NCBI GenBank assembly: GCA_051294905.1
Contig: CM119372.1
Span: 20,028,001 to 20,092,000 of the forward strand
Source of the DNA: Botryllus schlosseri
Taxonomy: Eukaryota
Direction: 5' to 3'
DNA length: 64,000 nt
Below the pieces are notes generated by a model. It ran no database searches and was not told the DNA's origin. It saw only the letters and a list, made by a program, of their open reading frames with translations. Positions within the stretch are counted from its first letter, which is position 1. The number at the start of each line of letters is the position of its first letter. Below, in pieces: positions 7,360-10,101 of this stretch. The translations under genes and the position numbers were made by a program.

Positions 7360-10101
7360 ATGATGAGATCCGACCTGTTAACCCTGAGCGTATGCTGCAT
7401 TCTTTGGGCTTCGCCGGCTTTATGCAACGAAGTAATGAATGACGACGAAGACCTTGCGGACTCGCTTTACGATGCGATTGTAAACGCTCAAAGTCAGTAC
7501 TCCGACAGGATCCCGCAGAGCGAAGAAGATGATTCGATGGTAAGTAGAAATAAGTCTGAACGATTGTTGTACGATTTCCTCGCGACAAGACACTTTACTA
7601 AAAACTTTAATACGCTTCAGTATGCAATTCATGAGTGAGGTTCTCGAGCGCCGCAGCTGAGTTTAGATTTCCCAGTCGTCTAAAGTGATAATATGATGAT
7701 GCAAAAATCTGTTATGCGGTATGCGTATGTATAGGCTACTCTCGAGAGGAGTGCGGAACCCGTAAACAACAATACCCGTATAGGTGACACCAATATCACA
7801 ACACCTCTACCATAACGCCAAAGAATAATCATCGTAATCCAATTCCGGGCTTGCTTGGCGTATAAAGCAGAGGAACGAAAATAGTGGTTCGCGACACTTT
7901 TGTTGACATATTGGTGAAAGAAAATAGCAACAAATTTATATGAACACAAAATCCAAGAATTCACAGCAATTATTTTTCGGGTCGAGACAGAAAGCACTAT
8001 TTGATCAGAACCATTGGCGCAGAGTTCCTGTGCCCTCAGCCAATTACGAGGGACTTGTTGGATACTAGTTTTTAAGTAACTGGTTTTCTTGTCTCTTCGA
8101 GCTGATTGGAGCGATGGAAATATCCTGACCTCTGACTAACACCGTCTCCAAAACCATATGCTTTCGTGATGTACCGCCCAAAGATTGCTATTAATGTGGT
8201 ATATGCAATATGTAGGCTACGTACAATTTTAAATGCTAGTCAGTAGTACCAGGAAAGTTGGGCTATTCACTACTCGAAAGATTTCACTGGTGATCATAGC
8301 AGTCGAGACGTCAATATCCCAGTTCCCAATAAGGAAGATATTTCATGATCGTTAAATATATCGATATGTTTTGTGTATTCAGGCTATTGACCTCGAGCCT
8401 CCGTCATCTCGAGTTTGGAGTCGAGGTTTTCTGCTGAGAAGGGTAAATATCCGAACCGTTTTATGATTGTTGCGCTTGACAGAAAGAACGATTGTTATTT
8501 CAACCATATGCTTACTAAGACTATATATTCGTGAGCGTTTCTCAAATTATAGCTTTGAAAACTATTGCAATCGCAATAAAGAGCTTTCAAAAATAAAATA
8601 GAATATCAAATTTATCCGGCCCGTTCTTTTCATAAGTGGCCCATGACTATGACGACTAAATTCAATCCCGAAGCCAATCATTTGCTCAATTTCTAGATAC
8701 ATCTTTTGCCTTACACAAATTCCGGATGCGGTACGCTACGATATTGAATACGGTACGATTGTATTTGGCGAAAAGAATGGCACGAAATTGCGGCACGATA
8801 TTTTCGCCTAAGTATACGGCACGATATTTTCGCTTAAGTATACGGCACGTTACGAATAGGGTCGCATTTAAAACAAAAATCAAATTAAAACAAACATGTT
8901 TAAAACGTGGCCCTTGCTTACAACATGTTTTTTAATGTTTATTTTTAAGACATGACGTCAACAATCATTAATTAATTCTGACGCCACCGTGGATTGACAA
9001 TTGAAAATATAAGGCAAATATTTCATTGCACTTTGTGGCAATGCTGCGGGTTGATTACAACTCCACAGAAATGACATTTCCTCTCACACGACTCGAATCT
9101 TACAATTTATACTCGGTTCGTATTCGAGTAATCGAATCATTGCGTTCAGACCTACCATTATCGTAATGGAATTTACAGCGATACTTGAGTACCATCAGTG
9201 ACTACTTTGACTAGTGCCCTTGATGATTATATACATCAAAATAGCATGTGACTTCTGAGTGGAAATGTTTTCTGTGTGTTCGTTCAGTGTCCTGTCCACG
9301 AGGGATGGGCACAATGATTCGAAAACTTTAATCCGAATCGAGTAATTATTTTAATGATTCGAGTCGAGTAGCAAAGGACGATTTTTTCGAGTACTGAAAT
9401 TATACGCTCCTCGAAACTGCAAGTTATTTTATCGACGAGAATTATAGTTTTGATACTATTTTCCACTCTGGAAGTCTTGAAACCTTGATTGGCCGTATCG
9501 CAGCATACGAAACATAGTACAAAGCCACGAACGTTACTGGAAATAACACATTTCCGAATTCATGATCCTCCCACAACATTGTCACGAAGTGAAATGAAAT
9601 TGGTAGGGTCGAAATAATACCACAGTAAATCTTTAATGTGACGGATAACAGACATTAGATTCTTTGTGGTGGCATAAAAGGAACTTATTTGAACCTTGAC
9701 ATGTTATTTACTGTTATTACGTCATAATGAGTGATACTCGAATACTCGACTCGAAGCATAATACGTGATTCAGAATCGAATCACTCCGGCACTCTATTTT
9801 GGCCAGCCCCAGTGTCCAGCAATGACTGCATGCGGCCTAAAACTTCCTTAATCCCTTTGCACGAGTTGGGATGTGACTGAAAACAACAGATGCGCGTTTC
9901 TGATTCCGATATATAAGTAGGCCATAATGTGCTTCCTAACTTTGATTTCATTATTTTCAGTCATGTTCGCCCCATGAGGTATGCGCGAAGTCGTTCGGAA
10001 GACGAAAGCGTAACGTATGTTACTGTCCTCAAGGATGGCGATGCCAGCCGAAGAACGCGAGTCCATATAGTCGATCGATATCTTATTTATGTTCTCAGTA
10101 A
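7360..10101 (+). CDS. Secreted cysteine-rich prepropeptide, CART-like; join(7360-7539, 8383-8442, 9961-10101), 126 aa
   Basis: Exon 1 is a signal-like MMRSDLLTLSVCCILWASPALC plus an acidic pro-region, with donor GTAAGT at 7540. Exon 2 is AIDLEPPSSRVWSRGFLLRR (acceptor TTCAG, donor GTAAAT). Exon 3 follows TTATTTTCAG and reads SCSPHEVCAKSFGRRKRNVCYCPQGWRCQPKNASPYSRSISYLCSQ*. Both introns are phase 0, and a dibasic RR directly precedes the 6-Cys peptide. Confidence 0.8.
9300..9811. mobile_element. Non-autonomous hAT-like MITE (TAGGGCTGGGCA family) in intron 2
   Basis: Colinear with the 36494-37009 copy; degenerate terminal inverted repeats. Confidence 0.75.

Follow-up and report, generated by a model that had tools for sequence, protein, structure and literature searches.

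CART is widely studied as a peptide of appetite and reward, and the locus considered here raises the question of whether a spliced six-cysteine precursor lying outside the vertebrates belongs to the same family by descent and, if so, what kind of member it is. The first-pass annotation of the window (the whole 64-kb stretch of DNA that was analysed) had proposed such a relationship from the letters alone. Following up this proposal, we consider it likely that the locus is a single-copy, transcribed, three-exon tunicate gene encoding a 126-aa secretory prepropeptide, that it is the orthologue of the Styela clava 'proto-cart' gene LOC120342641, and that it is distantly homologous to vertebrate CART.

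The annotation had claimed three exons in phase 0, and the coordinates of these proved exact: both introns run from GT to AG, and since exons 1 to 3 contribute 60, 20 and 46 codons, respectively, both are of phase 0, the spliced exons yielding a precursor of 126 aa (Table 1). The frame that carries the cysteines had been noted as missing from the ORF track, which is explained by its being a stop-to-stop ORF of only 51 aa (9946-10101), under the usual 60-aa listing limit. No ATG was found between 7321 and 7360 on inspection of the 5'UTR sequence and, judging from its sequence and its position relative to the mapped 5' end, the TATTTAA motif upstream may act as a promoter element. The second intron holds high-copy repeats at about 8860-9851, where depths reach thousands in runs X2 and X7, as well as inverted repeats (9086-9153 and 9301-9369). 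The neighbouring gene is GGCT-like.

Table 1. Features of the CART-like locus, in window coordinates
Feature	Position	Strand	Description and basis
TATA-like box TATTTAA	7291..7297	+	Candidate from sequence reading; the mRNA 5' end maps 24-30 nt downstream
Exon 1	7321..7539	+	5'UTR 7321-7359 and CDS 7360-7539, ATG at 7360; hydrophobic N-terminus and start of acidic pro-region; gtaagt directly after the exon
Intron 1	7540..8382	+	843 nt, GT..AG, phase 0; 136 spliced X19 reads, a single contig in each of X1 and X2
Exon 2	8383..8442	+	20 codons; end of pro-region, conserved W, terminal dibasic RR at 8437-8442; ttcag before, gtaaat after
Intron 2	8443..9960	+	1518 nt, GT..AG, phase 0; 181 spliced X19 reads, X1 and X2 contigs
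Exon 3, coding part	9961..10101	+	46-aa six-Cys basic CART-like domain (9961-10098) and TAA stop (10099-10101); ttttcag before
RRKR furin-type basic motif	10000..10011	+	Loop between Cys II and Cys III; putative cleavage site
3'UTR	10102..10367	+	At least to 10367; X19 depth and X1 contig

Transcription of the locus was assessed with run X19, which is on record as RNA and was used as raw reads, while runs X1, X2 and X7 were compared at the same place. Junction 7539/8383 is crossed by 63+73 X19 reads with 88 start places, the join being mapped as 7540->8385 with one A between, which corresponds to a C>A difference at 8384; junction 8442/9961, again GT..AG, is crossed by 77+104 reads with 87 start places. 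Both joints are also present in X1 and X2 contigs, and X7 displayed neither splice joint nor exon depth at this locus. The depth of X19 is about 120-150 per strand on exons (124+147 reads in the bin 7372-7495 of exon 1), as against about 0-1 on non-repeat intron sequence. Immediately before 7321, 80 X19 reads have a loose end, the consensus of which we take to be a template-switch oligo, and on this basis we place the 5' end of the cDNA at 7321. At the other end the X19 depth declines from about 69+93 (10100-10223) to 28+36 (10224-10347) and to about 5+5 further on, the X1 contig extends to 10380, and the segment 10368-10672 is swapped for about 35 other letters in all four runs. The locus is a real, spliced and well-expressed gene. 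That its open reading frames and splice sites are a product of chance has next to no probability, given 317 spliced raw RNA reads on the two junctions, a depth restricted to exons, a mapped 5' end and an orthologous annotated protein in Styela clava; lack of transcript support, which the first-pass annotation had named among the findings that would refute its model, is not what the reads reveal.

The conceptual product has a simple layout, in which a hydrophobic N-terminus is followed by an acidic pro-region, the dibasic RR and a 46-aa basic peptide with six cysteines. By inspection the hydrophobic stretch covers residues 6-22, with the acidic region after it, and residues 1 to about 22 are a putative signal peptide. 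Exon 2 closes with the two RR codons, and a single codon of exon 3 precedes Cys I. The computed gaps between cysteines are 5, 11, 1, 5 and 15, in agreement with the earlier reading C-x5-C-x11-C-x-C-x5-C-x15-C, and a six-frame translation of the full 64 kb contains the framework C-x5-C-x11-C-x-C-x5-C a single time, at exon 3. The peptide ends in C-S-Q. Its net charge is about +6.5 (pI 9.5) and that of the pro-region about -11, a pattern of acidic pro-region and basic mature peptide found equally in the Styela clava precursor. When the exon-3 peptide is compared with the 495.5-Mb genome it recovers itself (E 8.9e-27), the next match being at E 0.26; the CART-like gene is single copy in this genome. 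Four coding differences are listed between the RNA reads and the window, and each alters an amino acid (W16L, A61D, V71I and A113T; codons read by hand), a hint that residues outside the Cys core are weakly constrained.

How far, then, does the sequence itself connect this peptide with CART? Scanned exon by exon against Pfam, the gene gives CART (PF06373, gathering score 27 bits) as the sole family at E <= 10 for the exon-3 peptide, with 14.0 bits (E 0.059) for the peptide and 16.7 bits (E 0.0083) when five upstream residues are included, whereas exons 1 and 2 have zero Pfam matches. The profile check suggested earlier therefore bears out the family, no other being found, but not the threshold, since neither score reaches 27. 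When the CART model was run over the genome in six frames, this exon was not among the matches, and the six that were, scoring up to 24.2 bits, have internal stops or lack the Cys pattern and were set aside as chance; hence the Pfam score alone does not rise above the genomic background. Against 177,635 distinct PDB sequences (E <= 10), the exon-3 peptide has 1hy9, human CART, as its sole match at E 0.23. The HMMER alignment to 1hy9 contains 11 identities in 28 aligned positions, by hand count the five Cys plus E, A, G, R, P and G, and these are the same 11 that an earlier alignment by hand to human CART had given. All alignments of the window peptide, or of a profile containing it, to CART end after Cys V.

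A further connection is provided by an intermediate. A search of 1.84 billion representative proteins at E <= 0.001 returned three matches, among which P0005, a 131-aa precursor (E 1.8e-4), is the sole real relative in that collection. The other two are partial matches inflated by repeats, without the Cys framework or the precursor layout: P0004, of 706 aa, contains four repeated units (E 3e-7), and P0006, of 223 aa, contains repeats of C-Y-C-A-Q-G (E 8e-4). P0005 is named Styela clava LOC120342641 and carries a precomputed assignment to PF06373; we equated it with XP_039267492.2 (isoform X1) of PMC13364575 via the LOC name only. With BLASTP the spliced protein is 31% identical to P0005 over 125 residues (pairwise E 4e-19), the alignment spanning both exon junctions and placing exon 2 on the RFWSGRTLLR stretch of the Styela protein. 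In the opposite direction P0005 has exactly one match in the whole genome, at window positions 9958-10092 (E 4.9e-6), so that the reciprocal comparison, which returns to exon 3 only, makes the window protein and Styela LOC120342641 reciprocal best matches.

The two precursors (126 aa here, 131 aa in Styela) are colinear over the three exons. Their Cys domains are 44% identical, with 20 invariant columns and the same spacing of 5, 11, 1, 5 and 15, and in both the loop from Cys II to Cys III contains a basic R-x-K/R-R motif (RVRR in Styela, RRKR in the window), the pro-region is acidic, and the domain is closely preceded by a W and basic residues. They differ in that the Styela pro-region is longer and has a strong amphipathic stretch, which the window pro-region lacks; in that a single R precedes the domain in Styela as opposed to RR in the window; and in that the Styela chain ends in C-L and the window chain in C-S-Q. 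The proximity to CART differs likewise, the window peptide with its 14-16.7 bits being more remote from the Pfam model than the Styela protein, which at 26.6 bits (E 6.7e-6) lies near the cut-off of 27. The Styela protein also has 1hy9 as its top PDB match (E 1.3e-4, next E 0.91), and a two-sequence profile of window and Styela peptides finds 1hy9 alone, at E 9.6e-5. It is by this chain, from the window to Styela LOC120342641 and from there to Pfam CART and 1hy9, that homology with CART is supported.

Other collections yielded less. In a word-indexed homologue search P0005 recovered itself alone among 12 candidates, and the exon-3 peptide, compared in the same manner with longer proteins, had no candidate with three words in common, so that the window protein seems absent from that collection; this is weak evidence that it is unannotated. 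Neither the ESM Atlas, with no usable match, nor NCBIfam, with no match, added to the picture. A metagenome scan turned up one locus, L017, but this 12-residue word match is interrupted by a stop and has no counterpart of the first Cys, and it was discarded.

With the sequence evidence in hand, we can consider whether the cysteine spacing might be shared by chance, the peptide being a convergent knottin-, toxin-, colipase- or prokineticin-type molecule unrelated to CART. Small disulfide-rich peptides of the inhibitor-knot (ICK) and related kinds (spider and anemone toxins, colipase, Dkk, AgRP, Bv8) resemble the window peptide in size, in having six Cys and in the short beta-hairpin of its model, the Pfam CART score is below the cut-off, and the last Cys loop differs in length from that of CART. 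An AF2 model of the exon-3 peptide (pLDDT 70.1) found no Foldseek match at E <= 0.001; with VIA-align the same model places 1hy9 at Z 2.4 (rmsd 3.6, 36 aligned, rank 20 of 37), nominally under knottin-type toxins at Z 3.0-3.9, all of them below a meaningful Z, and in a list where ICK toxins, colipase, Argos, Dkk and Bv8 appear at Z 2.0-3.9, within noise. Since every structural Z is far under the noise level of the tool, the comparison does not discriminate CART from knottin-like folds, and the prediction for the whole Styela precursor (mean pLDDT 45.4) was too poor for a fold search. The sequence comparisons, in contrast, point one way. The ICK and related peptides have no sequence-profile match to the window peptide; knottin, colipase-prokineticin, Argos and Dkk families are missing from Pfam matches at E <= 10 for both exon 3 and P0005, as are chains of these families from PDB matches at E <= 10 for exon 3 and the two-sequence profile. 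The first-pass annotation had named as refuting its claim a placement by profile and structure searches with another Cys-rich family; CART is the sole family found by sequence, with 1hy9 the sole PDB match of exon 3 and of the profile. The identities to 1hy9 moreover include residues other than Cys, namely the A after Cys II, G-x-R and C-x-C-P-x-G, and the exon structure and dibasic position are those of CART genes as described in the consulted sections of PMC13364575. Convergence is thus highly improbable.

Homology by descent from a CART ancestor is also what the general organisation suggests. In common with vertebrate CART the window gene has a signal peptide (putative here), a pro-region and a C-terminal six-Cys peptide, the first five cysteines of which are spaced identically. 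The differences are as clear: the loop between Cys V and VI has 6 residues in vertebrate CART and 15 in the window, the C-terminal L-K-C-L seen in the CART alignments reproduced in PMC13364575 is absent from the window peptide, the pro-region has no CART similarity detectable by Pfam, and the peptide is much more basic than vertebrate CART. In section 3.1 of PMC13364575, cart and proto-cart genes are described as three-exon genes in which exon 2 encodes the dibasic signal and exon 3 all six Cys, exactly as in the window; the exon layout that the annotation had given for CART agrees with this description.

Two aspects of the first claim, that of a CART homologue outside the vertebrates, need to be separated. 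The homology is supported, by virtue of Pfam, 1hy9 and the Styela chain, but the host is an invertebrate chordate and not a distant invertebrate. The genome carries intron-bearing GT2+GH6 cellulose-synthase loci, with GT2 matches 3.3 and 19.5 kb upstream of GH6 matches; in the 10 kb upstream of one GH6 match a GT2 domain was not found. These loci mark it as a tunicate genome, and tunicates are invertebrate chordates, the sister group of vertebrates. Members of the kind found here are, on the evidence of the sections of PMC13364575 (30 June 2026) used here, already described in print, as 'proto-cart' in Ciona intestinalis, Styela clava, Branchiostoma floridae and Asymmetron lucayanum, and the window gene is a further tunicate member. 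According to these sections the CART domain of the proto-cart group is detected only with relaxed parameters and there is one gene per genome; Tables 1 and 2 list the Styela protein XP_039267492.2 as 'Proto CART', the Branchiostoma floridae member is XP_035670473.1, and the treatment is bioinformatic and in passing, the four species standing outside the tree. The window gene shares the relaxed-threshold domain, the single copy, the three exons and the orthology with Styela, while the Ciona gene is described there as having four exons. In our search of 1.84 billion representatives the Ciona and lancelet proto-carts were absent at E <= 0.001. Within the searched literature on CART in invertebrates or tunicates, only PMC13364575 was found relevant: the whole word 'CART' is absent from PMC5818035, and in a cephalopod venom preprint CART appears merely as one query peptide.

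If the gene functions as its layout suggests, the N-terminal hydrophobic stretch would act as a putative signal peptide and a prohormone convertase would cut off the acidic pro-region at the terminal RR of exon 2, releasing the 46-residue basic peptide with three disulfides. The pairing of these is probably that of human CART, I-III, II-V and IV-VI (section 3.2 of PMC13364575), and the secreted peptide would, by analogy with CART, most likely be a neuroendocrine extracellular signal. An unlikely alternative, though one that accepts descent from CART, is that in this lineage the product serves as a cationic host-defence or other non-neural secreted peptide. In precursors of the defensin type, the charge of a strongly basic, disulfide-rich peptide is offset by an anionic propiece; the propiece would do likewise here, the charges of both the window and Styela precursors having this form. 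Transcript depth is high in X19, a bulk RNA run, and the four listed coding differences, each of them non-synonymous, point in the same direction. So does the pro-region, in which no amphipathic sorting helix is detectable: in a crude scan its hydrophobic moment of 0.49 was matched by 485 of 1000 shuffles, while the Styela pro-region is amphipathic, with a moment of 0.73 matched by 7 of 1000. In CART an amphipathic helix of the pro-domain is described as a sorting signal in the part of PMC3602189 consulted. Against a defence role, the position of the dibasic site immediately ahead of the domain is in keeping with prohormone processing, and no antimicrobial Pfam family appears at E <= 10. Acidic spacers combined with basic mature peptides are, besides, common in neuropeptide precursors, so that the charge pattern is equally at home there. 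Likewise, the Ciona member FAA00720.1 was deposited as a 'hypothetical Ciona neural peptide' (Table 2 of PMC13364575).

For the preferred interpretation, that of a secretory proto-CART precursor, the biological meaning follows from the position of the gene. An origin of CART before the vertebrates, as published in June 2026 in PMC13364575 in the sections cited, opens simpler animals to the search for its receptor and its ancestral role, CART being, according to the introduction of that paper, still an orphan ligand with several candidate receptors. To this the window adds one more tunicate member, with transcript support for both junctions and the 5' end and with high depth; the gene is a useful data point and no surprise. 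The two tunicate peptides also share features that those of vertebrates lack: they are strongly basic, their loop from Cys II to Cys III is of furin type and basic, and their last loop has 15 residues. These could indicate, as an unlikely idea, that tunicate proto-CARTs constitute a distinct ancestral-type form of CART, with a 15-residue hairpin between Cys V and VI and, between Cys II and III, a conserved furin-type site whose cleavage could give a two-chain, disulfide-linked peptide suited to use as receptor bait. Tunicates combine a compact genome with a simple nervous system, and in conjunction with the strong transcription of the gene this means that the peptide could serve in such a role. 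Were the idea true, the proto-CART peptide could be a bait for the still-disputed CART receptor within a small receptor repertoire.

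The spliced, CART-like precursor of 126 residues proposed by the first-pass annotation is confirmed, and the positions claimed for its three exons match exactly both the window sequence and the spliced alignment. Because the exons hold 60, 20 and 46 codons, both introns are in phase 0. Translation recovers every element that had been described: a hydrophobic N-terminus precedes a very acidic pro-region (14 D/E versus 3 K/R, net about -11), RR occupies the final two codons of exon 2, and exon 3 encodes a basic peptide of 46 residues (8 K/R, 1 E, pI 9.5) with gaps of 5, 11, 1, 5 and 15 residues between its cysteines. 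Translated in all six frames, the 64-kb window contains the five-cysteine framework a single time. Its absence from the ORF track, remarked upon earlier, is explained by length, since the exon-3 frame is an ORF of 51 aa and the list starts at 60 aa.

Coordinates of features in the window and of the loci on contig C9
Feature	Position	Strand	Remarks
Retroelement ORF, first copy	2-1423	-	
Retroelement ORF, second copy	1563-4145	-	complete, 860 aa; RVT_1 38.5 bits
TATTTAA	7291-7297	+	seen in window sequence
Exon 1, coding part	7360-7539	+	ATG ATG at 7360; gtaagt directly 3'
G>T	7406		W16L (codon reading)
Exon 2	8383-8442	+	ttcag 5', gtaaat 3'
C>A	8384		A61D (codon reading)
G>A	8413		V71I (codon reading)
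Tandem pair, intron 2	8791-8842		26 nt
High-copy repeats, intron 2	8860-9851		
Inverted repeats, intron 2	9086-9153 / 9301-9369		
Exon 3, coding part	9961 to TAA 10099-10101	+	ttttcag 5'
G>A	10057		A113T (codon reading)
Replaced segment	10368-10672		about 305 nt
Tandem repeat	10516-10575		17-nt period
AATAAA	10590		sole copy in 10100-10720
Integrase ORF	13683-15383	-	566 aa; Integrase_H2C2 + rve
Gamma-glutamylcyclotransferase / AIG2-like gene	18862-19455	+	AIG2_2 86 bits, GGACT 30.7 bits
Cellulose-synthase-like locus, C9	~15025585-15029719	-	GT2 (PF13632), GH6 (PF01341)
Cellulose-synthase-like locus, C9	~15068570-15088831	-	GT2, GH6

Evidence for transcription comes from four sequencing runs mapped onto 7000-10700, of which X19 is RNA on record, used as raw reads with about 6% of the run sampled, and X1 and X2, whose run type is a guess, with no RNA record, contribute contigs. 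The X19 depth is 124+147 in exon 1, 54+66 in the bin with exon 2 and 139+142 in the coding part of exon 3, and falls to about 0-1 in the introns outside the repeats. Both junctions that had been put forward for an RNA-seq check are present in the X19 reads, 7539|8383 in 63+73 reads with 88 start places and 8442|9961 (GT..AG) in 77+104 reads with 87 start places. Both exon joints also occur on X1 and X2 contigs, and X7 displays neither exon joints nor exon depth over 7000-10700. Junction 7539|8383 is given by the mapping as 7540->8385 with one A in between; the loose-end consensus puts this down to C>A at 8384 and not to another splice site.

Immediately 5' of 7321, 80 X19 reads carry a loose end with a consensus that we take to be the template-switch oligo, which makes 7321 the cDNA 5' end; a sequence scan of 7321-7360 found no ATG ahead of the start codon. 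The read depth decays beyond about 10350. All four runs have, in place of the segment at 10368-10672 with its 17-nt-period repeat and AATAAA, about 35 different letters, of which several variants occur; the segment is a repeat insertion or structural polymorphism of the window's haplotype, in or just after the 3'UTR. The four listed coding differences between reads and window are all non-synonymous, and none falls at Cys or RR. Since V71I and A113T are common to X1, X2 and X19, the window holds the rarer allele at both. The high-copy repeats of intron 2, where summed contig depths reach thousands in X2 and X7, look like MITE-type insertions.

Compared with Pfam, the exon-3 peptide matches CART (PF06373) as the sole family at E <= 10 (14 bits, E 0.059; with five more residues 16.7 bits, E 0.0083), below the cut-off of 27 bits. 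Among PDB chains, searched up to E <= 10, the peptide finds the human CART structure, 1hy9, and no other (E 0.23). Both signals are weak yet specific. A six-frame genome scan with the CART model yielded six matches of at most 24.2 bits, window exon 3 not among them; having internal stops or lacking the Cys pattern, these were dismissed as chance. As chance thus reaches 24.2 bits with exon 3 unlisted, the exon-3 scores alone do not exceed the genomic background, and the case for CART depends on an intermediate.

This intermediate emerged when 1.84 billion representatives were searched in full with HMMER, which gave three matches at E <= 0.001. Two are repeat proteins covering just part of the query and were rejected; the third (E 1.8e-4) is P0005, a 131-aa precursor named Styela clava LOC120342641 isoform X1, with a precomputed PF06373 assignment. 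The spliced window protein and P0005 align colinearly through the two exon junctions, with 125 residues at 31% identity and a pairwise E of 4e-19, and the Cys domains have 20 of 46 columns in common (44% identical) with identical Cys spacing. In the reciprocal search suggested earlier, P0005 matches window exon 3 alone in the whole genome (E 4.9e-6). P0005 itself scores 26.6 bits on Pfam CART (E 6.7e-6) and finds 1hy9 at E 1.3e-4, the next chain being at 0.91, and a profile built from both tunicate domains has 1hy9 as its sole match among 177,635 distinct PDB sequences (E 9.6e-5). Through Styela, then, the reading as CART family outside vertebrates is supported.

The tunicate peptides resemble human CART in the A after Cys II, in G-x-R and in C-x-C-P-x-G. 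Every alignment with CART stops after Cys V. Because on testing the window peptide had neither the gathering score nor the last-loop length of Pfam CART, we do not place it there in the strict sense. Between Cys II and III both tunicate proteins carry a putative furin-type site (RRKR in the window, RVRR in Styela). An amphipathic pro-domain helix, clear in Styela, is not detectable in the window protein. For the 46-residue peptide, AlphaFold2 modelling from a two-row alignment (mean pLDDT 70.1) gives a hairpin at 27-30/42-45. Foldseek against the PDB gave no match at E <= 0.001 (best row E 2.2). In VIA-align, run on 48,161 chains, 37 rows reach Z >= 2, all far under what the tool rates as meaningful; knottin-type toxins, colipase, Argos and Dkk stand at Z 2.8-3.9, with 1hy9 in 20th place (Z 2.4). 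The model of the whole Styela precursor (pLDDT 45.4) is too low for use.

Elsewhere in the window, the two long retroelement ORFs are tandem and nearly identical, and their C-terminal part resembles, by eye, the GIY-YIG-type endonuclease of Penelope-like elements. The integrase ORF, by virtue of its two domains, is part of an LTR-retrotransposon pol. The gamma-glutamylcyclotransferase gene is apparently single-exon, with Logan entries (62-64% identity) as its closest database proteins. In the whole assembly (495.5 Mb, 219 contigs) the two cellulose-synthase-like loci on C9 lie in tandem, each with GT2 upstream of GH6 on the same strand, the domain order of tunicate cellulose synthase. The two GT2 domains score 60.9 and 60.2 bits, and the two GH6 domains 31.8 and 28.1 bits in the genome scan. 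The GH6 part is divided over several exons, one of which scores 39.7 bits, and an RT fragment separates GT2 from GH6 in the second copy. Given two tandem GT2+GH6 loci, CesA appears duplicated in this genome. A GH6 part in cellulose synthase is reported (PMC6523144, PMC7464555) for all tunicate genomes and for no other animals, and on this ground we take the assembly to be that of a tunicate. Since the Styela clava orthologue has only 44% identity in the Cys domain, the species is not Styela clava.

The non-vertebrate setting of the gene, in a tunicate, holds; its novelty does not, the proto-CART group being already named in print. PMC13364575 (Front Endocrinol, 30 June 2026) describes the oldest putative cart sequences, termed 'proto-cart', in tunicates and lancelets, with three exons (four in Ciona), the dibasic signal falling in exon 2 and the six Cys in exon 3, and with a CART domain detected under relaxed parameters alone. 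Its tables hold four members, each marked 'not in tree', namely Ciona intestinalis FAA00720.1 ('hypothetical Ciona neural peptide'), Styela clava XP_039267492.2, Branchiostoma floridae XP_035670473.1 and an Asymmetron lucayanum contig; as XP_039267492.2 is LOC120342641, it is P0005. We found no other report in the literature on CART outside vertebrates or on the accessions.

The window gene is transcribed and spliced, exists as a single copy, and encodes a small precursor orthologous to Styela proto-cart. The precursor would enter the secretory pathway by its N-terminal hydrophobic stretch and be cut by a convertase after RR, releasing a strongly basic, 46-residue peptide with three disulfides that would act extracellularly. 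The pairing of a strongly cationic peptide with an anionic propiece would also suit a possible host-defence-like role. Homology and the name of the Ciona entry make a neuroendocrine role the most likely one for this gene, a new addition to the proto-CART group of tunicates and lancelets.
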